Notes under the pieces: generated by a model
Seen by the model: only the letters and a program-made list of their open reading frames with translations
Told to the model about the DNA's origin: nothing
The model's database searches: none
Part shown: positions 2,551-64,000 of the stretch, in pieces
Layout of the letters: each line of letters opens with the position of its first letter
Numbering within the stretch: the first letter of the stretch is position 1
Made by a program: the position numbers and the translations under genes
Assembly (NCBI GenBank): GCA_964576925.1
Contig: CAZNWJ010000004.1
Coordinates: 55,218-119,217, forward strand
Direction of reading: 5' to 3'
DNA: 64,000 nt
DNA from: an uncultured Ignavibacteria bacterium
GTDB taxonomy: Bacteria > Zixibacteria > MSB-5A5 > CAIYYT01

Positions 2551-2754
2551 CACCCCAAAAACCACAGTTCACGTCGATGCGGCCGGCGCAAAAGCTTGTC
2601 GAATCACGACTTAAATTACCCAACATTCGCGCCTTTAATATTAGACAAAACATAAACAATATGAAGTTAGACATGAAAACTAGCTGGTGCATCCAGATGT
2701 TTTATAGACAGAAGTAAGACAGTGAATCAGAATTTGAGAATTCAGAGATAACAA

Positions 2755-3856: not shown

Positions 3857-6361
3857 ATGTTGAAACTGAGATTTCTGGCGGTGTTTCTGGCGACGGTGTT
3901 CGCAATGCCGCTCGTAGCTCGGGCCGCCGATGCGCGCCTGCAGGTGATTCACAACGCTGCCGATCCGGCGGCGGCCGTGGTCGACATCTATGTTAATGAC
4001 GCACTTTTTGAAGATGATTTTGCTTTCCGGGAGGCCACCGAGTATCGCACCGTGCCGGCCGGCGTGCAATTGAATATCCAGATCGCGCCGGGCAACTCGA
4101 GTTCCTCGGCGGAGGCAATCGCCACGATCCCGGTAACTCTTACCGCGAATCGCACCTATGTTGCGATCGCCAACGGCGTGTTAGGTTCCGGTTTTGCCGC
4201 CAATCCTGACGGCGCAGCGATCGGTTTCCAATTGTTTGCGCGCGACGGACTGCGTGAAAAGGCCAACTGGAACCAGGTGGTTGATCTGATTGCGTTTCAC
4301 GGCGCGACCGATGCACCGACCGTTGACGTGCGCATCCGCAAGGGTGGAAAGACTCCGCTTTTCAATGACCTGAGCTATGGTGAATTCAGCGCTTATCGCC
4401 CGGTAGCGGCGCGCAAGTACATTCTCGACGTGACCCCCGGCAACGATGCCTCGACCGTGGTTGCCTCGTTTGAGGCAGATCTCAACGGTCTGAAGGGCGG
4501 CGCTGCCGTCGTGTTTGCCTCCGGATTCTTGAACCCGGCGGCCAACAACGGTGGTCCGGCCTTCGGTTTGTTCGCCGCGCTGCCGAATGGCGCCGTCGCG
4601 GCTTTGCCGGTAGTGGTGCCGACCGCGCGTCTGCAGGTAATTCACAATGCCGCCGATCCGGCTGCGGCGTCAGTCGATATCTACGTGAATGATAATCTTT
4701 TCGAGAACGACTTCGCTTTCCGCGAAGCCACCGAATTTCGCACGGTTCCCGCTGGTGTCCAGTTGAATATCCAGATTGCGCCGGGTAACAGCTCGTCGTC
4801 CGCGCAGGCGATTGCCACGATCCCGGTGACGCTTGAGGACGGTAAGACCTATGTCGCGATTGCCAACGGCGTCCTCGGTTCCGGTTTCGCCACGAATCCC
4901 GATGGCCGCAGCATCAGCTTCAGCCTCTTTGCCAAGGACGGCATTCGCGAGCGCGCTTCCTGGTTCTATCGCACGGATGTCATCGGATTCCACGGCGCCA
5001 CCGATGCGCCGAACGTTGACATCGTTGCGCGCGGCTGGCCGTTTGGTCCGGTTGTCAATAATGCCTCATACGGAGACTTCGGCGGCTACGCTTCACTGGC
5101 TCCGCGAAAGTACGTTCTGGATGTCACTCCCGGCGACGACAACAACACGGTCGTGGCTTCGTTTGAGGCGGATCTGACCGGGCTGAACGGTGGCTCGGCG
5201 GTGGTGTTTGCTTCGGGGTTCTTGAATCCTGCCGCCAACAACAATGGCCCTTCGTTCGGGCTGTTTGCGGCGCTGGCGAATGGCACGGTCGTTGCCTTCC
5301 CGGCTTACCAGGCCACCGCTCGCCTGCAGGTCATTCATAATGCCGCCGATCCGGCTGCGTCGGTTGTTGATGTCTACGTCAACGACGGCGCGACTCCTTT
5401 GATCGACAACTTCGCGTTCCGCACGGCGACGCCGTTTATCGATGTGCCGGCCGGAGTGCAGTTGAATCTCCAGATCGCCCCGGGCAATAGTTCGTCCTCG
5501 GCGCAGGCGATCGCGACGATCCCGGTAACTCTTGAGCCGAATCAGACGTATGTTGCTATCGCCAATGGCATCCTGGGTTCCGGCTTTGCGGCCAACCCGG
5601 ATGGCGAGGATATCGGCTTCAAGCTGTTCCCGGTTGATGGCGTTCTCGAAGAGGGCCGCTCGCGTTTAGGCGTGAACCTCATCGTGTTCCATGGCGCGAC
5701 CGATGCGCCGACAGTCGATGTCTTTGCGCGCCTCGGTAACTTCACCTATCGCGCGGTGAATGACCTGACCTATGGTGAATTCTCGGACTACAAGTTCTTC
5801 TTTGCGAGGAACTACACCTTGACCGTTACCCCGGGCAACAGCACGACGGGTGTCGCGTCCTTCACCGCCGATCTCAGCGGTCTGGGCGGCGGAGCAGCCG
5901 TAGTGTTTGCTTCAGGATTCCTGAATCCGGCGGCTAACAACAACGGTCCGGCGTTTGGGCTGTATGCGGCGCTGCCGAACGGCGCCGTGGTAGCTCTGCC
6001 GGCGGTTGCGCCGAGTGCGATCGTCGCCATCGACAACGAAGACGAGTTGACGGAGGGGAAGATCGAAGAGCTTGAGCGCGGTGCGACAGCTTTGCCGACC
6101 GATTTTGCCCTGAGCCAGAACTACCCGAACCCGTTCAATCCGACCACGACGATTTCCTTCGCCTTGCCGAAGAGCTCGCCGGTGACCTTGAGTGTATACA
6201 ACATTCTCGGGCAGGAAGTAGCGCGGCTGGTGGACGGACCGATGGCCGCCGGCACGCACCAGGTGACGTTTGAGGCCTCCAATATGGCTTCGGGGATATA
6301 CTTCTACCGCCTGCAGACTGACGGGTTCAGCGAGCAGCGCAAGATGGTGTTGATGAAGTAG
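3857..6361 (+). CDS. Large secreted repeat protein: three ~230-aa tandem repeats, each with two DUF4397-like modules, plus a T9SS C-terminal sorting domain
   Basis: Signal peptide. The three repeats begin ARLQVIHNAADPAA..VDIYVND and share ~80% nt identity. The C-terminus YPNPFNPTTTISFALPK...GIYFYRLQ...KMVLMK is a typical Por/T9SS CTD. Confidence 0.75.
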   Translation: MLKLRFLAVFLATVFAMPLVARAADARLQVIHNAADPAAAVVDIYVNDALFEDDFAFREATEYRTVPAGVQLNIQIAPGNSSSSAEAIATIPVTLTANRTYVAIANGVLGSGFAANPDGAAIGFQLFARDGLREKANWNQVVDLIAFHGATDAPTVDVRIRKGGKTPLFNDLSYGEFSAYRPVAARKYILDVTPGNDASTVVASFEADLNGLKGGAAVVFASGFLNPAANNGGPAFGLFAALPNGAVAALPVVVPTARLQVIHNAADPAAASVDIYVNDNLFENDFAFREATEFRTVPAGVQLNIQIAPGNSSSSAQAIATIPVTLEDGKTYVAIANGVLGSGFATNPDGRSISFSLFAKDGIRERASWFYRTDVIGFHGATDAPNVDIVARGWPFGPVVNNASYGDFGGYASLAPRKYVLDVTPGDDNNTVVASFEADLTGLNGGSAVVFASGFLNPAANNNGPSFGLFAALANGTVVAFPAYQATARLQVIHNAADPAASVVDVYVNDGATPLIDNFAFRTATPFIDVPAGVQLNLQIAPGNSSSSAQAIATIPVTLEPNQTYVAIANGILGSGFAANPDGEDIGFKLFPVDGVLEEGRSRLGVNLIVFHGATDAPTVDVFARLGNFTYRAVNDLTYGEFSDYKFFFARNYTLTVTPGNSTTGVASFTADLSGLGGGAAVVFASGFLNPAANNNGPAFGLYAALPNGAVVALPAVAPSAIVAIDNEDELTEGKIEELERGATALPTDFALSQNYPNPFNPTTTISFALPKSSPVTLSVYNILGQEVARLVDGPMAAGTHQVTFEASNMASGIYFYRLQTDGFSEQRKMVLMK
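3938..6003 (+). repeat. Three tandem intragenic nucleotide repeats (~688-bp period) inside the DUF4397 protein gene
   Basis: The units start near 3938, 4626 and 5317, each with the motif CGYCTGCAGGTNATTCAYAAYGCYGCCGATCCGGC. Confidence 0.8.
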
Positions 6362-7648: not shown

Positions 7649-7688
7649 TTGTAATGCAGATAGTACGCTATGATTGCGTTGCAACCGC

Positions 7689-8798
7689 CTAATGCGTGCC
7701 CTGGATGGTAGTCCAGGAGGTATCGGAGGAGCTGGTGATACCCTTGACGCGCAGATCGAAGTCGTCGGGGTTGGAAGCGTTGCGCATGGCATCCTCGTAA
7801 GTGATATGCCCGGCGCGATAGAGTTTCATGATCGACTGGTCGAACGACTGCATGCCGTACTGCACCTGGCCGGCTTCGATAAACTCGATAATCGACGAGG
7901 TCTTGATCGGATCGATGATGCAATCGCGGATGGCGCCGGTGGTGACGGCTACTTCGACTGCCGGAATTCGGCCTGGCATATCGGCGCGCGGGAGCAGACG
8001 CTGGCAGACGATCGCCTTCATGGTGCCGGCCAGCAGCAAACGGATTTGCTGATGCTGGTGCGGCGGGAAGAAGGAGATGATACGGCTGATGGTTTCGACG
8101 ACGTTCATCGTGTGGAGCGTGGTCAAGACCAGATGGCCGGTATCGGCGGCGGCGAGGGCAATGCCCATCGTCTCGGCGTCACGAATTTCACCGATCAGGA
8201 TCACATCCGGGTCCTGACGAAAAGCGTGGCGCAGCGCGGCGGCGAAGCTCTCGGAGTCGGCGCCAACCTCGCGCTGGCAGATGATCGATTTCTTGTCGCG
8301 ATAGATGTATTCGATCGGGTCTTCGATGGTGACGATGTTTTCCGCCCGGTGCGAGTTAATGTACTCGATGACGGCGGCCAGCGAAGTCGACTTGCCGGAA
8401 CCGGTGGTGCCGGTGACGATAATCAGGCCGCGGCGGGTTTCGCAGAGATCGGAAATGACCTCGGGCAGGTTGAGATCCTCGAAAGAGGGCACCAGCGTGT
8501 TGACGGCACGGATCGCGATGCCGGGAGTACCGCGCTGGCGATAAAGATTGATACGGAAACGGCCGAGCTTGGTGACCGAAAGGGCCAGGTCCATTTCGCT
8601 GCGCGCGGCAAACCGTTTCTGCTGTTCGGGAGAAAGAATTTGGGAGACGATTTCGGTCATCGACTCCTTGGAGATCGGTTCGGTATTGATGACGACCAGT
8701 TTGCCGTGGACGCGCAGGGTCGGTTTGATCCCCACACGCAGGTGCAGGTCGGAGGCGGCTTGATGCTGCATCTCCACCAGCATGTCACGCAGGTTCAT
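7689..8798 (-). CDS. pilT: Type IV pilus retraction ATPase PilT
   Basis: N-terminus MNLRDMLVEMQHQAASDLHL. Walker A TGTTGSGKST. The PilT/PilU secretion-ATPase core is conserved. Confidence 0.95.
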   Translation of the reverse strand: MNLRDMLVEMQHQAASDLHLRVGIKPTLRVHGKLVVINTEPISKESMTEIVSQILSPEQQKRFAARSEMDLALSVTKLGRFRINLYRQRGTPGIAIRAVNTLVPSFEDLNLPEVISDLCETRRGLIIVTGTTGSGKSTSLAAVIEYINSHRAENIVTIEDPIEYIYRDKKSIICQREVGADSESFAAALRHAFRQDPDVILIGEIRDAETMGIALAAADTGHLVLTTLHTMNVVETISRIISFFPPHQHQQIRLLLAGTMKAIVCQRLLPRADMPGRIPAVEVAVTTGAIRDCIIDPIKTSSIIEFIEAGQVQYGMQSFDQSIMKLYRAGHITYEDAMRNASNPDDFDLRVKGITSSSDTSWTTIQGTH

Positions 8799-8857
8799 CG
8801 GTCACTCCTTATGGTTGTTCCGGAATCCTGCTGGTGCCGCGGGCGGAGTGCGCGCGC

Positions 8858-9376
8858 TTACGCCGGCTGGACGAGGAAAAGCACCTGACCGAACTCCACC
8901 GGAGAGGCGTTTTCGACCATGCGTTGGACAAGCACGCCGTCGAATTCCGCTTCGATTTCGTTCATCAGTTTCATCGCCTCGATGATGCAGACCGTCTGGC
9001 CCTTCGTGACCCGCTGGCCAACGTCGACGAACGCGGGCGCACCGGGCTCAGGAGAGGTGTAGAAGGTTCCAACCATAGGCGATTTGATTTCCTTGCCTGC
9101 CGGAGCCGCCACGGGGGGCGGAGCTGCAGCAGGTTGCGGAGCGGGCGCGACCGGGGCGGCAGCGACGGGCGCTGCAGCGGCCGGTTCCAGCGGCGGCAAG
9201 GTCGGCGCCACCTGCGCTTTGGGAATCGTGATCGTCGAGCCGTGGCCGTTACCGTTGGTTCCGGTCGTGCTACGCTTGACGATGGTTACATTGCTGAACA
9301 TCGTTTTGATGTTGAGCGACTCGATTTCCGACGATTCCACCAACTTCACCAGTTTCCGGATAGTTGATTCTCTCAT
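8858..9376 (-). CDS. accB: Acetyl-CoA carboxylase biotin carboxyl carrier protein (BCCP)
   Basis: Biotinyl-lysine motif [11 protein letters not shown] in a C-terminal lipoyl-like domain, preceded by an Ala/Pro-rich linker. Confidence 0.9.
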
Positions 9377-16098: not shown

Positions 16099-17202
16099 TC
16101 AGGCACACGGCGGCGGGCCGCCGGCGAAGATGTAGTTGATCAGGTAGATCGCATCCGAGATGTTGACGAGGCCATTGCTATCGGCATCACCCGCCCGGAG
16201 CGGCACCGGCGGAGGTCCACCTCCGAAGATGTAGCCGATGATGTAGATCGCATCGGAGATGCTGATCACCTGGCTGCCGTCGGCATCGCCGCAGAGGTAG
16301 GCGAACTCGATAGTAAGCATGGCACTGGTGAGCGGAGTCGAGGCCGACCAGGTATCGATCATTAAATAGTATTCTCCCGGAGGGAGCACGAGTTGTTCGA
16401 TTCCGAACGGGTTGGCGAGATTGCTGGTTGCGGAAGCGATACAGCTGCTGCCCACGGGACAGTCAGAACTGATCAAAAAGGCGCTGCCGGCAACCTGTCC
16501 GGGATCAAGAGTGAAATTCAGTCCCAGGGCACTGGCAAGCTCAAAAGAGTAGAACAGATCTTCACCGAGATCGTAGCCGCCGAGACAGGTGGCTGTATAG
16601 TCGTTTCCGGATCCCGCATTCGAGAATGGGCCTTCAGTGAAAGGAAGTTCCGCCGGAGTGAGGGTTCCGAAACCGAGCGGGAGATTGCAGTCGACGCCCC
16701 AGGGATCGACGAAGACCTCGTTGACCGTCACGTCGAATTCGGGGATGCATTCCGGAGCCGGCCAGGTATCGACGATGATGTAGTAGATGCCTGCCTCGAG
16801 CATAACCGGCGGTGTGTAGTGCGGTACACCGGTAGATTTCGTGCTCATGGCTAGGCAGTCACCGTCCGGCGGGCAGGTATCGTCGATAGCGATACCGGTC
16901 CAAGCAGTGCCGTGAGGATTCAGTTCAATTACCGCGAACATGAAGCTAAGAATCTCCAGGCGAATAATGTAATCCTCGCCATTGTCGTAGCTACCGAGGC
17001 AGGTTGAATTGTAGTCGTCGATGTGGCCGCAGGTTGTGAGTGCGGGAAGTTGAACGATCATCGAGCCGGGATAAAAGGTGACTTCATGCGCTGATTCGCA
17101 TTTGCGATTCACCGATTCCGGGTCGGCAGTTTCTGCCGGCAGGCGGGCTGAGCCTATAGCAATAGTGGCGGCGACCAGAAACGCCAGGGACTGGAAGCGC
17201 AT
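16099..17202 (-). CDS. Secreted protein of unknown function with an internal ~130-aa duplication and a dockerin-like C-terminal tandem module
   Basis: Signal peptide. Two internal repeats (TCLGSYDNGEDY... and TCLGGYDLGEDL...). C-terminus CGDADGSQVISISDAIYIIGYIFGGGPPPVPLRAGDADSNGLVNISDAIYLINYIFAGGPPPCA. Confidence 0.6.
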   Translation of the reverse strand: MRFQSLAFLVAATIAIGSARLPAETADPESVNRKCESAHEVTFYPGSMIVQLPALTTCGHIDDYNSTCLGSYDNGEDYIIRLEILSFMFAVIELNPHGTAWTGIAIDDTCPPDGDCLAMSTKSTGVPHYTPPVMLEAGIYYIIVDTWPAPECIPEFDVTVNEVFVDPWGVDCNLPLGFGTLTPAELPFTEGPFSNAGSGNDYTATCLGGYDLGEDLFYSFELASALGLNFTLDPGQVAGSAFLISSDCPVGSSCIASATSNLANPFGIEQLVLPPGEYYLMIDTWSASTPLTSAMLTIEFAYLCGDADGSQVISISDAIYIIGYIFGGGPPPVPLRAGDADSNGLVNISDAIYLINYIFAGGPPPCA

Positions 17203-19169: not shown

Positions 19170-20288
19170 TTGAAGCAGGCAAAGCGTGGTAACGTCGAGC
19201 CGAATCTCTTTGAGAAACCGGCTCCACGTATCGCGCCTCGGGCAATTGCGGCCCCCTTCGTGTTCATTGATCTCTTTGCAGGAATCGGAGGCTTCCGTAT
19301 CGGCCTCGAACGACTGGGCGGGCGTTGCGCGTTTTCATGTGAATGGGACAAGAACGCTCAAAGAACTTATCATGCATGGTTTGGTGAGATTCCTGCCGGT
19401 GACATTCGTAACGTCAATCCATGCGACATCCCTGATCATGACTTGTTGGCAGCGGGATTTCCCTGTCAGCCATTTTCAATTGCTGGCGTGTCCAAGAAGA
19501 ACAGCCTGGGTCACGAACACGGATTCAAGGACAAGACCCAGGGTACTCTATTCTTCCACATAGCCGAGATCATGCAGATGAAGAGACCTCCGGTTGCGAT
19601 TCTGGAGAATGTGAAGAATCTGCTTTCACACGAACGAGGTCGAACATGGCAGGTCATCAAGTCGACACTTGAAGAATTGAATTACGTCGTGTTCCACAAG
19701 ATCATAGATGCGTCCGGCTACGTGCCTCAGCACCGCGAAAGAGTCTTCATTGTCTGCTTTGACAAGGAGGTCTTTGGGGCCAACCCCGACTTTAGTTTCC
19801 CAGCGCCGGTCTCTGACACTGCGCCGAAGTTCAAGTCTATTCTTGAGAAGAAACCAGGCTCGAAGTATATTCTGACTGACCATCTTTGGGAATACCTGCA
19901 GAACTATGCTGCTGCGCACAAAGCGAAAGGCAATGGCTTTGGATTTGGAATGACGGACCTGAATGGAGTGAGTCGAACCCTGAGCGCTCGCTACTACAAG
20001 GACGGATCAGAGGTCTTGATCCCCCGAAATGGTGGCAACCCCCGCAGATTAACTCCACGGGAGGCCGCACGATTGATGGGTTTCGATGATTCGCTTGAGA
20101 TCGTTGTTTCGGATACGCAGGCCTACAAGCAGTTCGGGAACGCGGTTGTACCGGCGGTCGTGGAGGCTGTCGGGGGCGAAATTGTCAAGACCATGTTGCT
20201 CAAGTTTCAGATGATCGAGAATGGGTGTTTGCTCAAAGGACGAGACATCACTGTGAACTCGAATAAGGACATGATGATCGGAGGCTAG
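19170..20288 (+). CDS. dcm: DNA (cytosine-5)-methyltransferase
   Basis: Motif I FIDLFAGIGGF, IV GFPCQPFS, VI ENVKNLL, VIII QHRERVFIV, X GNAV. TTG start. Low local GC. Confidence 0.95.
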   Translation: MKQAKRGNVEPNLFEKPAPRIAPRAIAAPFVFIDLFAGIGGFRIGLERLGGRCAFSCEWDKNAQRTYHAWFGEIPAGDIRNVNPCDIPDHDLLAAGFPCQPFSIAGVSKKNSLGHEHGFKDKTQGTLFFHIAEIMQMKRPPVAILENVKNLLSHERGRTWQVIKSTLEELNYVVFHKIIDASGYVPQHRERVFIVCFDKEVFGANPDFSFPAPVSDTAPKFKSILEKKPGSKYILTDHLWEYLQNYAAAHKAKGNGFGFGMTDLNGVSRTLSARYYKDGSEVLIPRNGGNPRRLTPREAARLMGFDDSLEIVVSDTQAYKQFGNAVVPAVVEAVGGEIVKTMLLKFQMIENGCLLKGRDITVNSNKDMMIGG

Positions 20289-20292
20289 GGCG

Positions 20293-21273
20293 ATGAACAT
20301 TACAGGTTTGCTTAAAGGCTCTGAGTGGGACTATCCGTTCTTTAAGGTGCTGGCAAGAAACGACACCGGAGAGGCTCAAGGACATCAATCCGGATTAGTC
20401 CTTCCCAAAGACCTGCGAGACTACATGCCTGCACTTGAAGAACATAATGTCTCACAGATCTTTCCCACCGTGGATAGAATCCTCACTGCAGAGTTGTACA
20501 AGGGCAGAGTTCTTCTCGACAAATCAAGCCTTCGTTACCAGATTCAAACATGGGGTGGGAAGCGAACGCCGGAGGCGCGAATTACTGCAGGCATTCGAAC
20601 TTTGACGAATCTGGCGAAAGTTGGGGACATACTTGTATTTCAGAGGCGAATCGACTCGGTCGAGGAGTATCGCTTAATATTAATCGAAAGAGCTTCGGCA
20701 GAATATCGTGCTATCGAACGCTTGGTAGCAGGTAGAAAATGGGGCCCACTTAATGCACGTGCTGCTCCAATAACAATTGAGCAGTTTTCGCAAGCCAAGG
20801 AAGAGATGATGCAGACCGCCGACAAAACATTCAGACTGCAGGCAGAACCGCGAAGAATCTCAGGCACTGGCGTTACAAGGATCGCAAGAGACTCTGCATT
20901 CCGCGAAGTAGTAAAGCTACAATATGCGTTCAAGTGTTCGATCAGTGGATATGGGCTCTCTACACAGAGTTCTCACTACGAGGTGGAGGCAGCTCACATA
21001 GTTCCGAAGGAGCACGGAGGACCTGACGACCCACGAAACGGACTATGCCTTACACGCACTTTGCACTGGGCGTTTGATCGGGGCCTAATTGGCGTTACCA
21101 CTGAAAGAAGGGTGTTTATTCCGGAAGATATCAGGTCAATGCCTCAGAACGACTTGCTGCTGCAATTTGACGGGAGGCCTCTTGCAATCCCAAAGAATCC
21201 GAATCTTGCTGCTCACGAAGATGCGCTAGCCTGGCACAGAACGAATGTAGTTCGAGCCTTGGACCATGGTTGA
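20293..21273 (+). CDS. Putative restriction endonuclease: uncharacterized N-terminal DNA-recognition region plus C-terminal HNH nuclease
   Basis: HNH motif EAAHIVPKEHGGPDDPRNGLCLTRTLHWAFDRG at the C-terminus. Sits between dcm and vsr on the same strand. The N-terminal ~200 aa have no obvious family. Confidence 0.65.
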   Translation: MNITGLLKGSEWDYPFFKVLARNDTGEAQGHQSGLVLPKDLRDYMPALEEHNVSQIFPTVDRILTAELYKGRVLLDKSSLRYQIQTWGGKRTPEARITAGIRTLTNLAKVGDILVFQRRIDSVEEYRLILIERASAEYRAIERLVAGRKWGPLNARAAPITIEQFSQAKEEMMQTADKTFRLQAEPRRISGTGVTRIARDSAFREVVKLQYAFKCSISGYGLSTQSSHYEVEAAHIVPKEHGGPDDPRNGLCLTRTLHWAFDRGLIGVTTERRVFIPEDIRSMPQNDLLLQFDGRPLAIPKNPNLAAHEDALAWHRTNVVRALDHG

Positions 21274-21707: not shown

Positions 21708-22685
21708 CTACCATCCTAGCACGATGGCGAACATCAGCGGGGCGACGATCGAGGCGTCGGATTCGATGATGTACTTCGGCGTGTCGATTCCCAACTTGCC
21801 CCAGGTGATTTTCTCGTTGGGGACGGCGCCGGAATAGGACCCGTAGCTGGTGGTCGAGTCGCTGATCTGGCAGAAGTAGCCCCAGACCGGGACATTGGTG
21901 CGCTGCAGGTCCTGGTGAAGCATCGGTACGACGCAGATCGGGAAATCACCCGCGATGCCGCCGCCGATCTGGAAGAAGCCGATTGTCGATTTCTTCGTCG
22001 TGGCGGTGTACCAATCGGCGAGCCAAGTCATGTATTCGATGCCGGTGCGGACGGTGTGGACGTTCTTGATGTCGCCTTCAATGCAGTGTGCCGCATAAAT
22101 GTTGCCCATGGTGGAGTCTTCCCAGCCGGGCACGACGATGGGGAGATTCTTCTCGGCGGCGGCGACCATCCAGGAATCTTTCGGGTCGATCTGGTAGTGC
22201 AGCTTGAGCGCGCCGGAGCGGATAATCTTGTACATGAACTCGTGCGGGAAATGGCGCTCACCGGCTTTGTCGGCCTTGAGCCATTCGTCGAGGAGGACTT
22301 TCTCGAGCCGACGCAGTGCTTCCTCTTCCGGAATGCAGGTATCGGTAACGCGATTGAGGTGACGGTCGAGCAGGGCCTGCTCATCGTGCGGCGTCAGGTC
22401 GCGATAGTGCGGCACGCGCTCGTAGTGATCGTGGGCGACCAGATTGAAGAGGTCTTCCTCGAGGTTGGCGCCGGTGCAGCTAATGATGTGCACCTTATCG
22501 CGGCGAATCATTTCGGCAAGAGAGAGGCCGAGCTCGGCGGTGCTCATGGCGCCGGCCAGCACGACCATCATCTTGCCGCCGGTTTCGACGTGATGAACGT
22601 AGGCGTTGGCGGCGTCGATCATGGCGGCCGCATTGAAATGGCGATAGTGATGCTTCAGGAACCTGGTGATTTCGCCGTTGCTCAT
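21708..22685 (-). CDS. Deoxyhypusine synthase-like protein (DHS family; bacterial polyamine metabolism)
   Basis: Core IISCTGANLEEDLFN and GGGIAGDFPICVVPMLHQDL match DHS-like NAD-binding domain signatures. Confidence 0.8.
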   Translation of the reverse strand: MSNGEITRFLKHHYRHFNAAAMIDAANAYVHHVETGGKMMVVLAGAMSTAELGLSLAEMIRRDKVHIISCTGANLEEDLFNLVAHDHYERVPHYRDLTPHDEQALLDRHLNRVTDTCIPEEEALRRLEKVLLDEWLKADKAGERHFPHEFMYKIIRSGALKLHYQIDPKDSWMVAAAEKNLPIVVPGWEDSTMGNIYAAHCIEGDIKNVHTVRTGIEYMTWLADWYTATTKKSTIGFFQIGGGIAGDFPICVVPMLHQDLQRTNVPVWGYFCQISDSTTSYGSYSGAVPNEKITWGKLGIDTPKYIIESDASIVAPLMFAIVLGW

Positions 22686-22706
22686 GGTCGTCCCGTCTTT
22701 CGTACG

Positions 22707-23267
22707 TTAGTCTTCGTTGTCAAGAATCAGCATGGCGGCGGTAATGACCGTCGTCCAAAGGCCGTTCTTGTCGCCTTCGGCAGATTGCGTGATGTTACGC
22801 GAGTAGACGACTTCGCCTTTGAGTCTCCACTGCTCTTTGTTCTGGTCCCACGACTTGTCGAGATCGATCTCGAGACCCATCGTGGTCGCGAGCATCTGGA
22901 CGGCGAGGTCCTCGGCGTAGTCGCCGGAGAATTTCTGTGTCTGTCCGAAACCGTGGTGTTCGGACAAATAGCCGAACTTGGATTTGTCTTTTGGCATCGC
23001 CAAACCGATTGAAGCCGAGACCAGGCGATTGGGTTCGTTGGTGGCGTCGCGGCTCATGACGCAGAAAGCAATCTGGCCGGGCTCGAAGTACTTAAGTCCT
23101 TCGCGGCGCGTAATCAACTTGCAGTGCGGCGGAAAGATCGACGAGACGTTGACGAGATTGAGGTATGCGATTCCGGCGTCGCGCAGCGCCAACTCGAATG
23201 AGGCGAGCTTCTCTTTGTGATGGCCCACACCCTTGGTTAAGAAGATCTTTGTCGGTACGAAGTTCAA
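22707..23267 (-). CDS. pdaD: Pyruvoyl-dependent arginine decarboxylase
   Basis: N-terminus VPTKIFLTKGVGHHKEKLASFELALRDAGIAYLNLVNVSSIFPP, with the SS cleavage/pyruvoyl site, is diagnostic of the PdaD family. Confidence 0.85.
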   Translation of the reverse strand: MNFVPTKIFLTKGVGHHKEKLASFELALRDAGIAYLNLVNVSSIFPPHCKLITRREGLKYFEPGQIAFCVMSRDATNEPNRLVSASIGLAMPKDKSKFGYLSEHHGFGQTQKFSGDYAEDLAVQMLATTMGLEIDLDKSWDQNKEQWRLKGEVVYSRNITQSAEGDKNGLWTTVITAAMLILDNED

Positions 23268-23543: not shown

Positions 23544-25454
23544 ATGAGACGTTTGCTACTACCCCTTGTCATAATCGTCCTCACAACTCTCTCTCTGCAA
23601 GGCGCTGATTTGTACAAAGTTACGATCAGCGGCGCGGATGAGGCCAAGACTCTTCAAGCGCTGGGACTGGACGCCGTTGTCAAGATCAGCGATGGCTATC
23701 TGGTCATAGTGGATCAAGGTGAGGCGGCACAGTTGCTCAATTCGGAGTTGAAATCTGTGCGAATCTTCTCGGGGATCAACCGAAATGAACTCGCGCTTGA
23801 TCTGCGCACCAACGACGAGAACGCCGGGCGGTTTGAGTTGGTGTTTCAGGAGGGCGGGCTGCGGTTGTTCTATGTGCCCGGAGGTTATGATCCGAGTTCA
23901 GAGATGACGCCTTCGCTGATGCCGTTGCCGGCATCGCTGCGAATTTCGTATCGCGAGCCGCGGACCGGGGCGCCGAAGGGTATGCCGACGTCGACGGCGC
24001 TGGAATCGTTGCTAGGGACGATTTCGCAGGATTCGCTATACTCCTACGTCGCTAAGTTGCAGAGCTACTACCGCCGGCTGGCCGGAACGCCGAGTATCTA
24101 CCTGGCGCGCGACTGGATAAAAGCCAAATTCGAGTCGTTTGGTTACGACTCGGTTTATCTTGACGGTTGGCAGCAATACTTCAACGGCCAGATGAACAAT
24201 TGTTACAATGTCGTCTGCGTCAAGGTCGGAACGACGTATCCGGACCTGGAGATTATCGTAGGGGCGCATCATGACGGCGTCTACAATTCACCGGCGGCGG
24301 ATGACAACGGTTCCGGAACGGCGGGCGTACTGGAAATGGCGCGGGCGTTGGCCGATACGCCGACGGAAGTGACGTTCAAGTTCATTACGTTTGACGCCGA
24401 GGAGTTTGGGCTTTACGGGTCCTACCATTATGTCAATGGCGCTGTCGCGCGAGGGGATCAGATCCTGGTGATGCACAACATGGATATGATCGCGTTTCTT
24501 TACAATTCCAATGCGGCGACGGTTTACCATGGCGATGACCCATTCTACGCTCAATGGTGGTCCAATATCGCGCAAGCCAATTACGGGATTACCGGCTATT
24601 TAAGCGGCAACAGCTCGGGATCTGACCACTACCCGTTTACACAGAACGGTTACGATGCGCTGTTTATAATCGAGGACATCTTTTCGAGTGTCTATCACAG
24701 TCCGCGCGACAGCACGACGTACATGAATTTCGAGTACATGAACCGCATGGTGCGCGCATCGCTGGCGATGGTCTATGCGGTGGCGAATGGCGGGGATTTT
24801 GACAACGACGGCGTGCCCAATACGCAGGACAATTGCGTCTTCAATCCTAACCCTGCGCAGGAAGATCCTGACGGCGATTTGATTGGCAGCGCCTGCGACA
24901 ACTGCCCCGACTATCCGAATCCCGGACAAGAGGATGAAGACGGCGACGGAGTCGGCGACTACTGTGACGGCAAGGTGCATGTAACGGCGATTCGACTTCC
25001 CGACGCCTACTATGGAGAGCCTTACAACTATCAATTTGAATGCATCGGCGGGACCGGACCGTTTAGCTGGTCGTTCTTCGGAGGTGATCTGCCGTTTGGC
25101 TGCGATTTCCAGAGCCCGGCCGGAATCCTGACCGGCACACCGAGCTACAAAGCGACCTTCTACTTCACGATTGCAGTTCTCGATGCCGGGACGCCGCCCA
25201 GCGCCGATACACAAAGTGTGTGGATTGTTGTCACCGACCCCGGGTATTTGTGTGGCGATGCTGACGCCAGCGGCAACGTGACGGTGTCAGACGCGGTGTT
25301 TATTATCAACTACATTTTTGGCGGGGGACCGGCGCCGAATCCTGACGAGCGCGGGGATGTCGACTGTACGGGTATGACGACCGTCTCGGATGTCGTCTAT
25401 CTGATCAATTATATATTCGGCGGTGGGGCAGCGCCCTGTGCAGCGTGTCCTTGA
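23544..25454 (+). CDS. Secreted M28-family aminopeptidase with thrombospondin type-3 Ca-binding repeats, an Ig-like domain and a dockerin-like C-terminal module
   Basis: Signal peptide. M28 metal ligands ([38 protein letters not shown]). TSP3 repeats [46 protein letters not shown]-terminus [31 protein letters not shown]...[29 protein letters not shown]. Confidence 0.85.
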
Positions 25455-43893: not shown

Positions 43894-44622
43894 CTACTTC
43901 AGCAGCAGCAATTTTAGACTGTGTTGTTTGCCTCCGGCAATAATTCGACAGAAATAGACGCCGGATGCAGCCGCAGCACCGGTTTCATCGCGACCATCCC
44001 AGGAAAACTCATGAGGACCGGATAACAATAGCCGCCGCTGGAGAAGGCGAACCCTGCGGCCGCTGACATCAATTATCGAAATGTCAACAGCAGCCGATGC
44101 GGAGAGGTTGAAACTGATAGTCGTAGCCAAATTGAAGGGATTAGGAAATGCAACGAGTCGCATTTCGGACAGTGAATTCACGTCAACGGCATATTCAGTC
44201 GATAGCGGTTGCGGGTGCAGATAGAACGTGTACTCAGTGGGCCCAAAGGTGAAATCGAAGTCGTCTGGACATCCCAACTGATCCCACTTGTAACTGACAA
44301 TTGTGGTATCGTAGCCTTGCGCAGTAGCATAATAGTGTACATATCCGCCAACAGGTCCTGAGGGATAGTACAATGTGCAACAATCGGCGATGGTGAAACG
44401 ACCCTCTGCATCAGTCAGGGCAAACAGTTCGCCATTGAGATTTCCGCATCCCCAGCATTGGGAGTACAAGCTGACGAGGGCGCCTTCGATGGGTAGAGAA
44501 TCCCGATAGTCGAGCACCTGCCCGGAAAGACCATTGTTGATGAAACACCCGGCTGACGCTGATGATGCTGATACCAATAGCCCCAACAGCCAGAAACAGA
44601 ACGCAAACTTGGATTGCCGCAT
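43894..44622 (-). CDS. Secreted protein with a CarbopepD_reg-like N-terminal domain and a T9SS C-terminal sorting domain
   Basis: Signal peptide. GQVLDYRDSLPIEGALVSL...TDAEGRFTI. CTD FPNPFNLATTISFNLS...GVYFCRI...KLLLLK. Confidence 0.7.
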   Translation of the reverse strand: MRQSKFAFCFWLLGLLVSASSASAGCFINNGLSGQVLDYRDSLPIEGALVSLYSQCWGCGNLNGELFALTDAEGRFTIADCCTLYYPSGPVGGYVHYYATAQGYDTTIVSYKWDQLGCPDDFDFTFGPTEYTFYLHPQPLSTEYAVDVNSLSEMRLVAFPNPFNLATTISFNLSASAAVDISIIDVSGRRVRLLQRRLLLSGPHEFSWDGRDETGAAAASGVYFCRIIAGGKQHSLKLLLLK

Positions 44623-49063: not shown

Positions 49064-51103
49064 ATGCGCCACCTTAGTCAAAAGCGATTTGCCTCGAACG
49101 CCGTCATGATTGCCGCCTTCTGCCTGGTCTGGGCAGCGCCAGCCGACGCTCAGACAGCATTCACGAGAATCACCGATGTCGGCAACCCGGTTGTTTCCGA
49201 CGTTACCAACCAAACCTACACTGGGTGTGCGTTCGTCGATTACAACAATGACGGGAATCTCGATCTGGTTGTTGTCGATCCGAACCAAACCAAGCTCTAC
49301 AAAGGAGATGGCACGGGAGGATTCACCCGTATTACCAGCACCCCCATCACGACCGGGACGTTCTTCGCGCTGGGGACTACCTGGGCGGATTACGACAATG
49401 ATGGTGACCTTGACTGCCTTCTGGCGGGCACCGGCGGAAGCGCCCTCTATAAGAACAACGGCGATGAGACGTTCACCCAGGTCTCGGCGAGCCTGATGGG
49501 GACTACCGACCTACGCGGCTGGAGCCCGGCCTGGGGCGACTATGACAGCGACGGCTATGTCGACCTGGTGATCACGTTTCCCACAGGATTCGTCGGCAAC
49601 CCACAACGGCCGAACCGGATGCTCCGTAACCAGGGCCCGCCCGATTACGCCTTCGAAGTGATCGACACCGGCGTTATCGTTACCGGGCTCAAGCCGTACA
49701 CCTCCGGCAACTGGGCCGATTACGATCTCGATGGCGACCTCGACTTCTTCATCGGCAGCGGCCCGGCCTCGTCGGTTTCTGGACTGGATGATCTTTACAA
49801 GAATCTGCTGGTCGAAACCGGAGTCCCTGGATTCGAACGAATCTTGCAGGCGCCGATCGCGAACGACCCGGGCGATGGTCAGGTGTGGAACTGGATTGAT
49901 ATCGACAACGACATGGACTTGGACGCCTACCGCACCAACTGGGGCGGCGTGGCCATCGGCTTGCGCAGTAATGATCTCTATGTCAACAACGGCGGAACTT
50001 ACACCGAAGTGGGCGGCGAGGAGATCGTTGACGATCAGACGGTGTCGCTGTCGCAAATCTGGCAAGATTTCGATAACGACGGCGATTTGGATTGCTATAC
50101 GGTTAACATCGGCATGAACAAGTACTACCGCAATGCGGGCGGGACGTTCTTTGGTGATTTCATGGGAGACCATGTCACGACCAGCCAGCAGGGATCGGGC
50201 GGCACCGCCGGCGATATTGACAACGACGGTGACATGGACATCTTCGCGGTGGCTTCCGGAGCGAACAAGCGTCTTCTCCTGCGCAATGACTACGCGGGTG
50301 CAAATGGCTGGCTCAAGCTCAAACTGGTGGGTCAGAAATCCAACTGGGCGGCAATCGGGGCGCGGGTCTGGATCAAGGCCACCATCGACGGCGACTCGGT
50401 CTGGCAGACGCGCGACATCTCGGCACAAAACACCTTCCTGGGGCACAATTCTTTTGAGGTACACTTCGGCCTGAAGAACGCATCGGTGGTCGAAGCTCTG
50501 CGGATTGAGTGGCCGTCGGGCATTGTCTTCGATACTACGATGGTAGGAATCAACCAAACGCTGACGTTCATCGAGAGTTGTGAGGACGGCGATGGCGACG
50601 GCGTAGGGTGTCTGGACAATTGCCCGTCGGTCGCCAACGCTTCGCAAGCGGATACGGATGGCGATTTCATCGGCGATGCTTGTGACAATTGCCTGAGCGT
50701 CTCAAACCATGAACAGGCCAATTCCGATGCCGACAGCCTCGGTGATGCCTGCGACAATTGTCCGGCAGACGCCAATAACGACCAACTGGATTCCGATAGC
50801 GATGGTGTTGGCGACGCTTGTGACAATTGCATCGATGTGGCCAACCCGGGTCAGGAAGATGGCAACAGCAACGGCGTTGGCGATGCCTGCGACTACATCT
50901 GCGGCGACACCGATGGCAACAGTATCATCACAATCTCGGATGCCGTCTACCTGATTACCTACATCTTTGGTGGCGGTCCGGCGCCCGACCCGGTGATTGC
51001 CGGGGATGCGGATTGCAATGGGATCGTGACGATCTCCGACGCCGTGTTCCTGATAACCTTCATATTCGGCGGCGGCCCGGCGCCTTGCACCAGTTGCCCG
51101 TAA
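49064..51103 (+). CDS. Secreted CRTAC1-like protein: FG-GAP/VCBS beta-propeller repeats, an UnbV/ASPIC domain, thrombospondin type-3 repeats and a dockerin-like C-terminal module
   Basis: AAGGAGAGGAGC RBS and a signal peptide. Repeats of the type W(A/G)DYDNDGDLD. The UnbV-like block ANGWLKLKLVGQKSNWAAIGARVW. TSP3 repeats CDNC...D.D.DG.GDACD. C-terminus [29 protein letters not shown]...[29 protein letters not shown]. Confidence 0.75.
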   Translation: MRHLSQKRFASNAVMIAAFCLVWAAPADAQTAFTRITDVGNPVVSDVTNQTYTGCAFVDYNNDGNLDLVVVDPNQTKLYKGDGTGGFTRITSTPITTGTFFALGTTWADYDNDGDLDCLLAGTGGSALYKNNGDETFTQVSASLMGTTDLRGWSPAWGDYDSDGYVDLVITFPTGFVGNPQRPNRMLRNQGPPDYAFEVIDTGVIVTGLKPYTSGNWADYDLDGDLDFFIGSGPASSVSGLDDLYKNLLVETGVPGFERILQAPIANDPGDGQVWNWIDIDNDMDLDAYRTNWGGVAIGLRSNDLYVNNGGTYTEVGGEEIVDDQTVSLSQIWQDFDNDGDLDCYTVNIGMNKYYRNAGGTFFGDFMGDHVTTSQQGSGGTAGDIDNDGDMDIFAVASGANKRLLLRNDYAGANGWLKLKLVGQKSNWAAIGARVWIKATIDGDSVWQTRDISAQNTFLGHNSFEVHFGLKNASVVEALRIEWPSGIVFDTTMVGINQTLTFIESCEDGDGDGVGCLDNCPSVANASQADTDGDFIGDACDNCLSVSNHEQANSDADSLGDACDNCPADANNDQLDSDSDGVGDACDNCIDVANPGQEDGNSNGVGDACDYICGDTDGNSIITISDAVYLITYIFGGGPAPDPVIAGDADCNGIVTISDAVFLITFIFGGGPAPCTSCP

Positions 51104-61342: not shown

Positions 61343-64000
61343 TTACGGACACGCCGCACAGGGCACCGGCCCGCCGGCGAAGATGTAATTGATTAGATAC
61401 ACAGCATCGGAAATCGTCACTATGCCATTGCAGTCTCCGTCACCCGCGGGCAACGGATTCGGCGCCGGACCGCCTCCAAAGATGTAGTTGATCAAGTAGA
61501 CGACATCGGAAATCGAAATAATGGCTGAGCCATCGGCATCGCCGCAAACAGATGAAGGCAAGGCCATGATGAACGGCGAAAGCGAGCCAGTTACTCCGCA
61601 AATTCGGTTGTTGTCAGTGTCGAGGGAACTCGTGATATCGACCCATGAATCGCCGTCGTAATGGAAAAGTGTTAAGTCCAGTTCGCTACCGCCCCCGAGG
61701 TTAGCTGAATCGTACAGGAAGCAGACTTCGATCGTTCCCGAGTACGGCGCGGTCGTTGTCAGGTCGAAGTACAATTCGGGCGTACTGGGGACTATCTGGT
61801 ATCCCGAAGGCGGATTTGGACCTATTGTACCGGCCGCTACTGAAGTCTCGCCATCAGTTGAGACCTCGGCAAAGGTGACTGTGAGGCTGTCGCCCAGGGC
61901 AACCATGACATCGGCGCCAGCCGGTGTATTCCCGCAGGCGGCAGAACCGGCCCCAATCAGCTGCCCACAAGAATTGTTGGCAGGCGCGCAAGGCGAGGTG
62001 CTGCTGACCCGGTAATCTCGGGCGGGCAGATCGCAAAACACTGGATCAGCAGAGAAGTTGTCATTCACCCCATTTTGGCCAGCCAAACAGGCGGTGAAAT
62101 CTGCCGGCGTGTTGCCGAAAATATTCGAACAAGTTACGGTCAGGCCGCCTTCATCGCAAACCGCAACATTTCCACCCTCATTGAAGGCAATCACGCATTC
62201 GACAAGGTTGACAACGCCATCTTCTATGAGCAGGACACTCGCGTCAGCGGCAGGATGGGGAAGTAGGAAGTTTCGAGTGAAGGTGGATTTTGTGACAGTC
62301 ATGCTTCCAGGGTCTGCGGAATACAGCGCTCCGCCGCCTTGGGCGGCGTTGGAATCAAAGACACAACCCAAAACCGTCATTTGCCCGGCATTGAATAACG
62401 CGCCGGCAACATCCGCATGGTTCCCAACAAACCGACTGTTGGTGACTTCGACGATGCACCCTTCGAAGACTCCCAAGGCAGCTACGTACGTGCCGAAATT
62501 CCCTTCAAAGTGAGAATCGCGGACGGTGAGCCGGGCGCCCGCTGAAACGGCAATTGCACCGGCAACGGCAAGCGAATACCCGTTGTCTCTGAAGGTACAC
62601 CGTTCAAATGTCGGCCACGTCGTGCCGGCGCCGCTGTTTTGGACCGAGACCGCACCGCCTTGTCCGATCGCGAAGTTGTTTTCGAAGACACAATCTCGAA
62701 ACTGCGGCCGCGCGCCATAATCGATGTGGACTGCGCCGCCCTCGTGGCCGAAATTCCCCGCCAACGGTGCTGCGCCGTTGCGGATGGTCAGGCCCGAGAC
62801 CACCAGGTTGCTGTCCTCGCTCGACGACACAAACCTGAAGGCTCGATGCGGATCCCCTTCGCTCCCCTGGCAGTCTATGATTGTCGCAGCTGCCCCCTCG
62901 CGGCCTGTAAGCGAGACTTTTTTGTTCGAGAACGTGATGTCGCGGTTTCCGGCGCCGGTATATGTACCGGGCGCCAGCATGATCTTGTCAAAACTGTTCG
63001 CGAAATCAATTGCCGCCTGGAGAGTGCCGAACTGCTCCGGAACCGACAACTCACACAAGCGGGGGTCAATCTGCTCTTCAAAACTCTCGATGAGAAAACT
63101 CACGATGTTCGGGCCATAGTCATATCCGTCAACGAGAGCAGCACGTAGTACCTGCTCGCCACCGCTGGGGATATTGAATTCTCCGAATGTCAGCAGGATC
63201 GACACGTCGCTGCCGCCGGTGATATCTGCCGAGTTTGACGACTTCATTTCCTTGTAGGCATCGCCGTCCCTGAGACCGCCATAGGGATAGATCAGACTCG
63301 AGTTTAAGATCGCCCGCAAATTGCGATCGCTGCTGCAGGGCGTTAAATTCACAAGTCCAAACGCCGTGGCGGGGCCGCCCGTGTTTTGAATCCTGACAAA
63401 GTGATTGCCGGCCTCAACGATCGCCTCGTCCGTGACCGGACCGGTAGTGATGTCCGCATCCGCGAAGATGCCGACGGTAACCGCCACCGGCGTTCCACAC
63501 TCGTTACGAACCCGGTATTCGGCTTCAATGAACGAGCAGCTGTCGGGGATGGTGGGACTGTAGCCGTACTTATAGATGACGTCCCCGTGAAAGCGCGCAT
63601 CCTTTGTCGCAAAGCGAAGGCCCTGTGTCGTGCGGCCATAGGCGTCAACGTCGGTAACAAACCTGTCGGCGTAGAGAAAATCGTCTTGAGAGTGCAAATC
63701 CATGTAGACAGTCGTGTCGCTGCCGTCAACGACTCCTAGCAGCAGCGAGCCGCTGAGGTAGTATGCTCCGCTGGGATCAACGAGAGACTCGTAGCCCCCG
63801 CCGAGTCCCGCAGTCGGCGGCGCCTGGAGTGAGAAGCACCCGGTTCCGATGCTCGTAAACGCCGAGGTAGGATAGTCGTGAACGATCTGAACCGTGATGG
63901 GTACACGCAGGGTCGTCCCATCCGGCGGAGAAAATGTCAAGATGAGAGTATCGGAAAGATCCGTGAGATCACACGCCGACGCGGCGCTTCCAGCATCGAA
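61343..64000 (-). CDS. Secreted right-handed parallel beta-helix (PbH1) repeat protein with a dockerin-like C-terminal module; the 5-prime end may run off the window
   Basis: Repeated N..G..G.A beta-helix rungs (CVFENNFAIGQGGAVSV, CTFRDNGYSLAVAGAIAVS, SRFVGNHADVAGALFN). C-terminus [31 protein letters not shown]...[29 protein letters not shown]. The ORF is still open at position 64000. Confidence 0.7.
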   Translation of the reverse strand, partial: FDAGSAASACDLTDLSDTLILTFSPPDGTTLRVPITVQIVHDYPTSAFTSIGTGCFSLQAPPTAGLGGGYESLVDPSGAYYLSGSLLLGVVDGSDTTVYMDLHSQDDFLYADRFVTDVDAYGRTTQGLRFATKDARFHGDVIYKYGYSPTIPDSCSFIEAEYRVRNECGTPVAVTVGIFADADITTGPVTDEAIVEAGNHFVRIQNTGGPATAFGLVNLTPCSSDRNLRAILNSSLIYPYGGLRDGDAYKEMKSSNSADITGGSDVSILLTFGEFNIPSGGEQVLRAALVDGYDYGPNIVSFLIESFEEQIDPRLCELSVPEQFGTLQAAIDFANSFDKIMLAPGTYTGAGNRDITFSNKKVSLTGREGAAATIIDCQGSEGDPHRAFRFVSSSEDSNLVVSGLTIRNGAAPLAGNFGHEGGAVHIDYGARPQFRDCVFENNFAIGQGGAVSVQNSGAGTTWPTFERCTFRDNGYSLAVAGAIAVSAGARLTVRDSHFEGNFGTYVAALGVFEGCIVEVTNSRFVGNHADVAGALFNAGQMTVLGCVFDSNAAQGGGALYSADPGSMTVTKSTFTRNFLLPHPAADASVLLIEDGVVNLVECVIAFNEGGNVAVCDEGGLTVTCSNIFGNTPADFTACLAGQNGVNDNFSADPVFCDLPARDYRVSSTSPCAPANNSCGQLIGAGSAACGNTPAGADVMVALGDSLTVTFAEVSTDGETSVAAGTIGPNPPSGYQIVPSTPELYFDLTTTAPYSGTIEVCFLYDSANLGGGSELDLTLFHYDGDSWVDITSSLDTDNNRICGVTGSLSPFIMALPSSVCGDADGSAIISISDVVYLINYIFGGGPAPNPLPAGDGDCNGIVTISDAVYLINYIFAGGPVPCAACP

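Follow-up and report, generated by a model that had tools for sequence, protein, structure and literature searches.

What is the C-terminal tail shared by four otherwise unrelated exported proteins of an uncultured bacterium, and to what does it attach them? The proteins are encoded in a 64,000-nucleotide stretch of DNA (positions 55,218 to 119,217 of contig CAZNWJ010000004.1, assembly GCA_964576925.1), here called the window. A first-pass annotation of the sequence had described the tail as dockerin-like and had proposed that it serves a second, dedicated system, for example cohesin-dockerin display at the cell surface, beside the type IX secretion system (T9SS), whose C-terminal domain (CTD) is carried by two other proteins of the window. 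The tail is, almost beyond doubt, a true member of the dockerin type I family (PF00404) and not a mere look-alike. It is probably a plug by which each carrier docks onto cohesins, either T9SS CTD-bearing or dockerin-bearing, of the kinds predicted in close relatives.

One tail on four unrelated proteins

The same tail of 66-69 residues, running from a Y-x-C-G-D motif to the stop codon, ends four open reading frames (ORFs) of the window (Table 1). Pairwise identities are 58-68%, and 30 of 69 alignment columns are invariant. A hidden Markov model (HMM) built from the four tails and searched against six reading frames of the window returned exactly four matches, at 130-139 bits, with the next at E=1.4; these are the four proteins that the first-pass annotation had named, at the same gene coordinates. 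The start it gave for the tail of the M28 peptidase gene, 25258, is one base off, as the in-frame start is 25257 for the first loop or 25245 for the whole module from YLCGD. Also as it described are the GGGP(A/P)P motif and, at the very end, CxxCP, with a single C instead in the protein encoded at 16099..17202 (the 16099 protein). The tail-coding DNA is only 62-71% identical among the four copies, so neither recent duplication nor an assembly artefact accounts for the similarity, which is maintained at the protein level.

The carriers had been described as an M28 peptidase, a CRTAC1-like propeller, a beta-helix protein and a duplicated domain of unknown type, and this holds. They are otherwise unrelated, except that Ca-binding thrombospondin type 3 (TSP3) repeats are common to the M28 and FG-GAP (propeller) proteins. 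The two halves of the duplicated domain in the 16099 protein are 34% identical over 95 residues (E=1e-18). By eye, the three visible N-termini resemble Sec signal peptides. The order TSP3, optionally He_PIG, then dockerin recurs as a linker cassette: TSP3 joins carrier to dockerin in two of the four window proteins and in 23 of the 75 cohort proteins described below. Matches to the NCBIfam model for MtsC fall on these TSP3 repeats (residues 415-476 and 505-565), outside the tail.

The tail is a type I dockerin

Model PF00404 matches all four tails over profile positions 2-56 of 57, two of them (24.5 and 23.7 bits) above the gathering threshold (GA) of 22.9 and two (19.8 and 19.1 bits) just below it. 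The same model matches 58 of the 75 cohort proteins at E<=1e-3, with a best E-value of 2e-12, and close homologs of the tail already carry PF00404 in precomputed annotation. A word-indexed homology search gave 10 close fragments for the 66-residue tail and 11 for a CipA cohesin. When the tail profile was searched against all PDB sequences, every match at E<0.05 was a dockerin.

Predicted structure agrees. An AlphaFold2 model of the M28 tail, computed from a 13-sequence alignment, has a mean predicted local distance difference test score (pLDDT) of 85 and places helices at residues 14-26 and 47-59, with a loop ahead of each. Foldseek aligned this model with 32 solved dockerin chains at template modelling (TM) scores of 0.60-0.80 and root-mean-square deviations (rmsd) of 1.5-3.1 A. 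All other folds had a probability of 0.1 or less, the next best being parvalbumins at 0.07 or less. Profile, PDB sequence matches and predicted fold together bear out the dockerin-like character that had been suggested for the tail.

In the alignment of the four copies the tail consists of two tandem F-hand segments of about 22 residues, each a 12-residue loop followed by a helix. The patterns D-x-D-x-(S/N)-x6-D in loop 1 and D-x-D-C-(S/N)-x6-D in loop 2 are invariant in the four tails. Among 199 modules of the wider cohort, more than 95% have D or N at loop positions 1, 3 and 12, and about 95% have S, N, D or T at position 5. From these loops we infer binding of Ca2+. The helix motif YLINYIF, together with I/V-S at loop positions 10-11, is strongly conserved across unrelated carriers and genomes; I/V-S occupies these positions in both segments of 120 of the 184 cargo modules. 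Such conservation, with the near-symmetry of the two segments, fits one dominant specificity, possibly with the dual mode of binding known from clostridial type I dockerins.

Expansion of the subtype in related genomes

Species-representative genomes were scanned with the tail alignment, and the best 79 loci (cited below by L-numbers; 1.33 Mb) all come from 15 metagenome-assembled genomes (MAGs). The loci include flanks of about 20 kb, and the sample is biased towards dockerin genes. An exhaustive profile search was also made of 1.84 billion cluster representatives; proteins from that search bear P-numbers below.

Zixibacteria-like MAGs syntenic with the window carry the subtype in greatly expanded numbers. 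The scan of species-representative genomes produced more than 572 pattern matches, of which at least 502 were confirmed. In the 79 loci, 193 ORFs contain 199 modules, about one per 7 kb, and 179 modules (90%) end within 5 residues of the stop codon. A signal-peptide-like N-terminus was detected by a crude heuristic in 149 of the 193 ORFs. The window is syntenic with several of the MAGs at 67-77% nucleotide identity, including dockerin-bearing orthologs: the M28 protein has an ortholog with the same tail in L006 (74% nucleotide identity), and the FG-GAP protein has one in L032 (68%). An exact look-up of the M28 protein in a gene index found no record of it, and the synteny suggests that the DNA comes from a related, unsampled member of this lineage. 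Cluster representatives matching the tail profile number 30,959 at E<=1e-3 and 9,398 at E<=1e-10. The weaker matches include dockerins without the four-cysteine signature described below, which in its exact C-terminal form is found in 54 of the best 150. The tail thus belongs to a cohort far larger than the four proteins in which it was noticed.

A Pfam census of 75 cohort proteins shows TSP3 linkers (23), He_PIG (12) and FG-GAP propellers. Peptidases of families M1, M4, M43, M12B and M28, Laminin_G_3, PKD, sialidase-like, lectin-like and beta-helix domains also occur, and no cellulase family is among the 25 commonest Pfam domains. Public labels of the 15 MAGs are inconsistent ("candidate division Zixibacteria" or Zixiibacteriota, "uncultured Ignavibacteria", "uncultured bacterium"), and the taxonomic labels of these third-party annotation assemblies may be unreliable.

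Some cluster representatives depart from the single C-terminal module. P0011, P0014, P0016, P0017, P0020 and P0028, each of about 1,100 residues, have 8-12 tandem dockerins lacking the cysteines and what looks, by eye only, like a subtilisin-like (S8) protease end. P0012, P0013 and P0015 are nearly all tandem dockerins. P0031 and P0053, with 3-4 dockerins each by Pfam, close with a T9SS CTD; P0075 and P0094 are similar, with the CTD detected by a local CTD profile only. These poly-dockerin-CTD proteins have the reverse polarity of the cohesin-CTD proteins described below, in that dockerins would be what T9SS delivers.

Four cysteines and a candidate covalent clasp

The conserved cysteines, in tail numbering, are C3 (position -1, on the N-terminal side of the conserved Gly-Asp), C41 (fourth residue of loop 2), C65 and C68. 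Of 187 full-length cohort modules, 149 have the complete set. Across the 187, C41 and C65 are lost or kept jointly (Fisher p=6e-15), and C3 and C68 co-occur (p=1.5e-9). Fourteen modules show the commonest variant, in which exactly C3 and C68 are missing, and modules with C68 that lack C3 usually have a cysteine a few residues upstream. Two disulfides, C3-C68 and C41-C65, are the most likely reading of this covariation. An initial guess that the first cysteine pairs with the third and the second with the fourth is contradicted by it, as the covariation favours first with fourth and second with third. The dockerin of the 16099 protein is a rare two-cysteine variant retaining C3 and C65 only, without the loop-2 and last cysteines; this CxCx pattern occurs in one of the 187 cohort modules.

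In solved dockerins, such as that of R. flavefaciens ScaA, a residue at position -1 to -3 touches a C-terminal residue; this "intramolecular clasp" makes the fold more stable and strengthens binding to cohesin (PMC3821032). Position -1 is thus a clasp position, and in the present subtype the -1 residue covaries with the last cysteine. Known clasps are non-covalent, made by aromatic stacking or salt bridges, whereas here a Cys-Cys pair takes the place of such contacts and is therefore probably a disulfide. In that case C3-C68 would make the known clasp covalent.

Cohesins in close relatives

A cohesin of C. thermocellum CipA, validated against 1AOH at E=1.6e-91, was used as a query. Alone it was too insensitive, and a single-sequence search with it found nothing in the window or the loci. 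A better entry came from the best metagenomic matches to the tail, many of which carry a variant dockerin directly after the signal peptide and then a module of about 150 residues. Pfam Cohesin (PF00963) recognizes this module in P0024 at 34.1 bits (GA 24.1) and narrowly misses it in P0026 at 23.2 bits, and a profile seeded on the P0024-type module recovers true CipA cohesins (E=7e-19). By hhalign, the dockerin-linked cohesin profile aligns with CipA at E=7.8e-4 in the expected register.

The dedicated cohesin profile identifies 16 cohesin ORFs in the 79 loci. Four have a cohesin and a T9SS CTD without a dockerin, eleven have a cohesin and a C-terminal dockerin without a CTD, and one is a contig-end fragment with neither. 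The cohesin-CTD ORFs encode about 280-295 residues in L009, L035 and L079 and 729 in L020, and four of the eleven cohesin-dockerin ORFs are a minimal signal peptide, cohesin and dockerin of about 270 residues. Cohesins of the matching divergent family occur in at least 9 of the 15 MAGs, counted within the flanks of about 20 kb. Across the 1.33 Mb of loci no ORF with several cohesins turned up; 2-3 are present in some metagenomic proteins.

The small cohesin-CTD family comprises 19 cluster representatives of 262-277 residues, annotated only with PF18962. Its members match the dedicated iterated cohesin profile at E-values of 1e-13 to 1e-18 and the intermediate cohesin family at an hhalign probability of 73%. 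For one member, P0176, an AlphaFold2 model (pLDDT 79) shows a signal helix, a beta domain at residues 26-176 (pLDDT about 85-93 over most of it), a disordered linker and the CTD. In PDB comparisons its best 42 matches are all cohesins, in agreement with the jelly-roll beta-sandwich of that family, with E-values down to 2.5e-10, target TM scores up to 0.82 and rmsd near 3 A. They include type I cohesins solved with dockerins (3UL4, 1AOH, 1OHZ), the archaeal non-cellulosomal 2XDH, and 2W1N. On a 211 kb contig that also holds dockerin locus L038, the P0176 gene is found about 15 kb from that locus; its neighbours are tilS, hpt and ftsH.

The variant dockerin placed between signal peptide and cohesin is seen at L047:7670-10207, at L041:6706-9117 and in 41 of 51 cohesin-bearing metagenomic matches. 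In the sequences inspected its loop-2 cysteine is shifted by one position (D-x-D-x-C-G-S), and a dockerin of the window type often stands at the far C-terminus of the same protein. The variant dockerin and its neighbouring cohesin could form a self-capped intramolecular pair or a chain-forming unit. At loop positions 10-11, IS/IS is found in the 120 of 184 cargo dockerins noted above as against 5 of 15 dockerins of cohesin-bearing proteins; the sample is small, and the difference hints at specificity classes.

A proposed mechanism and what weighs against it

Cohesin binding is the likely function of the tail. Once exported by Sec, the dockerin would take up two Ca2+ ions and form two disulfides as it folds, either outside the cell or in the oxidising periplasm, and would dock peptidases, propellers, beta-helix or lectin-like carriers onto cohesins, non-covalently and in a Ca-dependent manner. 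The small proteins made of signal peptide, cohesin and T9SS CTD would be exported by T9SS and probably held on the cell surface, while the cohesin-dockerin proteins may act as adaptors that multiply docking sites. The dockerin tails and T9SS CTDs of the window would then be two layers of one display system. We give this specific T9SS-anchored surface model an even chance. The second, dedicated system first proposed is therefore supported in its cohesin-dockerin part and not in its independence: because the anchor-like cohesins carry a T9SS CTD, a T9SS layer is favoured over a separate system. Attachment to an S-layer and an alternative secretion tag, offered as further options, gained no support.

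Several observations weigh against this proposal. Two of the four tails score slightly under the Pfam gathering threshold. No cohesin was found in the window, either by Pfam scans of 36 of its ORFs or by a relaxed cohesin-profile search (best E=0.34), so a cohesin in this genome is extrapolated from relatives; the partner search came up empty in the window and turned up candidate cohesins in close relatives. A Pfam Cohesin scan of ten T9SS-CTD ORFs of the loci gave no match, and three of these were later recognized as cohesins by profile and model. The cohesin-CTD proteins have no direct profile match to CipA cohesins, and their assignment as cohesins is argued from the iterated profile, the 73% hhalign probability and the predicted fold. 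In some Bacteroidota, proteins with a type A CTD end up in the medium instead of on the cell, so surface retention of the cohesin-CTD proteins is not assured. The cell is presumably diderm, and the model also leaves unexplained how dockerin cargo that lacks a CTD would get past its outer membrane.

Alternative explanations

The tail might be an orphan dockerin, with the true fold and no cohesin to bind, serving as a Ca-dependent stabilising or solubility module or binding another ligand such as a polysaccharide, the S-layer or the outer-membrane surface. The empty search of the window points this way, as does the excess of dockerin over cohesin ORFs in the sampled loci, 193 to 16 (12:1). A 2009 survey by Peer and co-workers reportedly lists many genomes with dockerins and without detectable cohesins. 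A large excess of dockerins is, however, normal in cellulosomes, and matching divergent cohesins are present in most of the related MAGs, often fused to this very dockerin subtype, as in 41 of 51 cohesin proteins. That the helices are so strongly conserved, between unrelated carriers as between genomes, also fits a shared protein partner. We consider the orphan reading unlikely.

Cohesin docking and T9SS export might instead be coupled more closely, with cargo binding a cohesin-CTD protein in the periplasm, which offers Ca2+ and disulfide formation, and crossing the T9SS translocon with it as a complex. In favour of this, cargo without a CTD is nonetheless expected outside the cell, the CTD sits on the anchor-like cohesin, and the cysteine pairs imply folding in an oxidising compartment. 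The idea is pure conjecture, a type II system or vesicles could serve instead, and we know of no established case of T9SS transporting a non-covalent partner; piggyback export therefore seems improbable to us. Equally improbable is the fullest version of the picture, a large non-cellulolytic cohesin-dockerin display for peptidases and adhesins in Zixibacteria-like bacteria, in which cargo locked by two disulfides would ride the T9SS translocon bound to single-cohesin anchors. If true, such hitchhiking of cargo would be a new, non-covalent route of protein export.

A module recognized by an outer-membrane translocation or sorting machine, that is, an alternative secretion tag, would account for the 90% of modules ending within 5 residues of the stop codon and for cargo lacking any other recognizable outer-membrane export signal. 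It would also suit the finding that tail and T9SS CTD never occur on one protein in the Zixibacteria loci (0 of 193, against 12). C-terminal placement is, however, just as typical of cellulosomal dockerins, and the module is also found at N-termini, within proteins and in tandem arrays of 8-12. Poly-dockerin proteins of other lineages have a T9SS CTD too (P0031, P0053, P0075 and P0094), which implies that dockerin and CTD have different jobs. None of the four window proteins has a transmembrane helix or basic tail after the module, each ending ...GGPxPCxxCP-stop or its single-Cys variant, so this is not a sortase-, exosortase- or rhombosortase-type signal (LPXTG, PEP-CTERM, MYXO-CTERM). We know of no secretion system that recognizes the dockerin fold, and regard a secretion tag as very unlikely.

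That the tail is a divergent subtype of T9SS CTD, as its C-terminal position, similar length (about 70 residues) and T9SS-using host might suggest, is refuted with near certainty: a profile scan of the four tails with Por_Secre_tail (PF18962/TIGR04183) gave no match, hhalign against an alignment of 12 T9SS CTDs from the same lineage gave a probability of 0.15%, and the predicted folds differ, two helices with Ca loops in the tail and a beta-sandwich in the CTD of P0176, while structural matches of the tail are all dockerins. Profile comparison was the test on which the dockerin-like description could have fallen, and it finds no relationship to CTDs. The T9SS type A CTD resembles the tail as a C-terminal module of about 70-80 residues on secreted proteins of the same organism; it differs in fold, is unrelated in sequence, and is a translocation and sorting signal rather than an assembly plug.

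Comparison with known cohesin-dockerin systems

The closest structural counterparts are clostridial type I dockerins (PF00404), on which the model superposes at TM scores of 0.7-0.8 (C. thermocellum Xyn10B, 1OHZ/2CCL; A. cellulolyticus ScaB, 4UYP/4UYQ). Shared with them are the duplicated F-hands of about 22 residues, the 12-residue loops (D1, D/N3, S/N/D5, D12), the two antiparallel helices, the C-terminal position on secreted enzymes, and near-symmetrical segments as in dockerins with dual binding modes. The window subtype differs in its four conserved cysteines, absent from the three PDB dockerin alignments compared, in the GGGPxP motif after each helix and in very hydrophobic helices (YLINYIF). 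Its host is a presumably diderm bacterium of the Fibrobacteres-Chlorobi-Bacteroidetes (FCB) group, and it is borne by peptidases, propellers and lectins, not by plant cell wall glycoside hydrolases.

Dockerins on peptidases and other non-cellulolytic proteins, in organisms that do not degrade cellulose, have precedents among non-cellulosomal cohesins and dockerins, such as the Archaeoglobus fulgidus cohesin 2XDH and C. perfringens 2OZN/2W1N; the present system differs by the scale of its expansion and its link to T9SS. The survey by Peer and co-workers is also said to list peptidases with dockerins of this non-cellulosomal kind from every domain of life.

A cellulosome-like complex has been inferred for Ca. 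Stygibacter (Cloacimonadota), with dockerin enzymes and a 3,755-residue scaffoldin that combines tandem cohesins, carbohydrate-binding modules and a T9SS CTD (PMC8542988). Both hosts are uncultured FCB-group bacteria with signal-peptide enzymes, peptidases included, that end in dockerins, and in both lineages a cohesin protein carries a T9SS CTD, there proposed for surface attachment. One multi-cohesin scaffoldin serves there, whereas here there are single-cohesin CTD proteins (about 275 residues; 729 in L020) and separate adaptor-like proteins. Both systems are known from genome inference alone.

The present system works like, and belongs to, the cohesin-dockerin family. Set against a strict definition of the cellulosome, which asks for plant cell wall glycoside hydrolase cargo and a multi-cohesin scaffoldin, it has no cellulase family among its 25 commonest cargo domains and no such scaffoldin in the sampled DNA, and for these reasons should not be called one. 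Distinctive are the four-cysteine lock, the single-cohesin T9SS proteins missed by standard profiles, and the size of the expansion. Among the papers searched, none names both Zixibacteria and dockerins; one mentions Zixibacteria and the cellulosome, in unrelated passages.

Other features of the window

The two proteins said to bear a canonical T9SS CTD do so (PF18962/TIGR04183), although the gene at 3857-6361 lies on the plus strand and not, as first stated, on the minus strand. The smaller of them, encoded at 43894..44622, shows that the organism uses T9SS. The larger consists of three near-identical tandem units of about 230 residues, each a pair of DUF4397 domains, with A-type repeats 71-79% identical. 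As a candidate scaffoldin-like partner it is unsupported, with an hhalign probability against cohesin of 0.08% and no solved relative.

Among neighbouring genes, those for a C-5 cytosine DNA methyltransferase and, directly after it, an HNH endonuclease resemble a restriction-modification pair; they stand at a distance of 2-4 kb from two dockerin genes. Two genes of polyamine metabolism, in an arrangement kept in L006, lie immediately upstream of the M28-dockerin gene. Genes for a sugar ATP-binding cassette (ABC) transporter are followed by a glycoside hydrolase family 38 (GH38) alpha-mannosidase gene in a region syntenic with L023 at 69% nucleotide identity; the mannosidase carries CHB_HEX_C and PA14 domains and lacks both a dockerin and a T9SS CTD. 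A block at 7.7-11.0 kb is kept in L055 and L067, where it abuts two cohesin-plus-dockerin genes; on the corresponding side in the window is the DUF4397-CTD gene. ORFs at three places gave no Pfam match at E<=1e-3; at one of these, two overlapping ORFs on opposite strands are alternatives.

Table 1. Coordinates of the dockerin-bearing genes and other features of the window (positions are those of the window)
Feature	Position	Strand	Remarks
M28 gene: signal peptide, M28 peptidase, TSP3 repeats, He_PIG Ig-like domain, dockerin	23544..25454	+	636 aa; Pfam: Peptidase_M28 1e-35, TSP_3, He_PIG, Dockerin_1 23.7 bits (GA 22.9)
Dockerin module of M28 protein	25245..25451	+	69 aa; YLCGD...CAACP
Putative Ca loop 1 of M28 dockerin	25257-25292		
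Putative Ca loop 2 of M28 dockerin	25356-25391		
Cys codons of M28 dockerin	25251, 25365, 25437, 25446		
TSP3 linker regions directly upstream of dockerins	25044-25244; 50564-50893		
Gene for signal peptide, duplicated domain of unknown type (2 x ~95 aa), dockerin	16099..17202	-	367 aa
Dockerin module of 16099 protein	16102..16299	-	Dockerin_1 24.5 bits
FG-GAP gene: signal peptide, FG-GAP/UnbV_ASPIC (CRTAC1-like) propeller, TSP3 repeats, dockerin	49064..51103	+	679 aa
Dockerin module of FG-GAP protein	50894..51100	+	Dockerin_1 19.1 bits, below GA; tail HMM 134 bits
Right-handed beta-helix protein gene, C-terminal dockerin	61343..64000	-	ORF open to window edge, N-terminus beyond it
Dockerin module of beta-helix protein	61346..61552	-	Dockerin_1 19.8 bits, below GA
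Gene for signal peptide, 6 x DUF4397, T9SS type A CTD	3857..6361	+	CTD at 6107-6358
Gene for small secreted protein with T9SS type A CTD	43894..44622	-	CTD at 43897-44163
C-5 cytosine DNA methyltransferase, then HNH endonuclease	19170-21273	+	
Pyruvoyl-dependent arginine decarboxylase and deoxyhypusine-synthase-like gene	21708-23267	-	
Sugar ABC transporter (periplasmic binding protein, ATPase, permease), then GH38 alpha-mannosidase	53391-61176	+	mannosidase 1,318 aa
ORF without Pfam match	1969-2565	-	
ORF without Pfam match	7674-8888	+	
ORF without Pfam match	7689-8798 (alternative to 7674-8888)	-	
ORF without Pfam match	45010-45573	-	

Implications

Annotation of the four window proteins as exported, dockerin-tagged cargo can be made with confidence, with a known assembly module in place of a speculative sorting tag. 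Dockerins in an uncultured, non-cellulolytic bacterium will not surprise a specialist, and current understanding is not overturned. A cysteine-locked dockerin is possibly a more stable module, of interest for designer cellulosomes. Anchor-like cohesins with T9SS tails escape the standard Pfam Cohesin model. The points that deserve attention are these T9SS-linked cohesins and the problem of how the cargo crosses the outer membrane. In an uncultured lineage of sediment and soil, a large set of exported peptidases, propellers and lectin-like proteins appears to serve a cohesin-dockerin system, and the cellulosome-like proposal made for Cloacimonadota is extended to a second FCB lineage.

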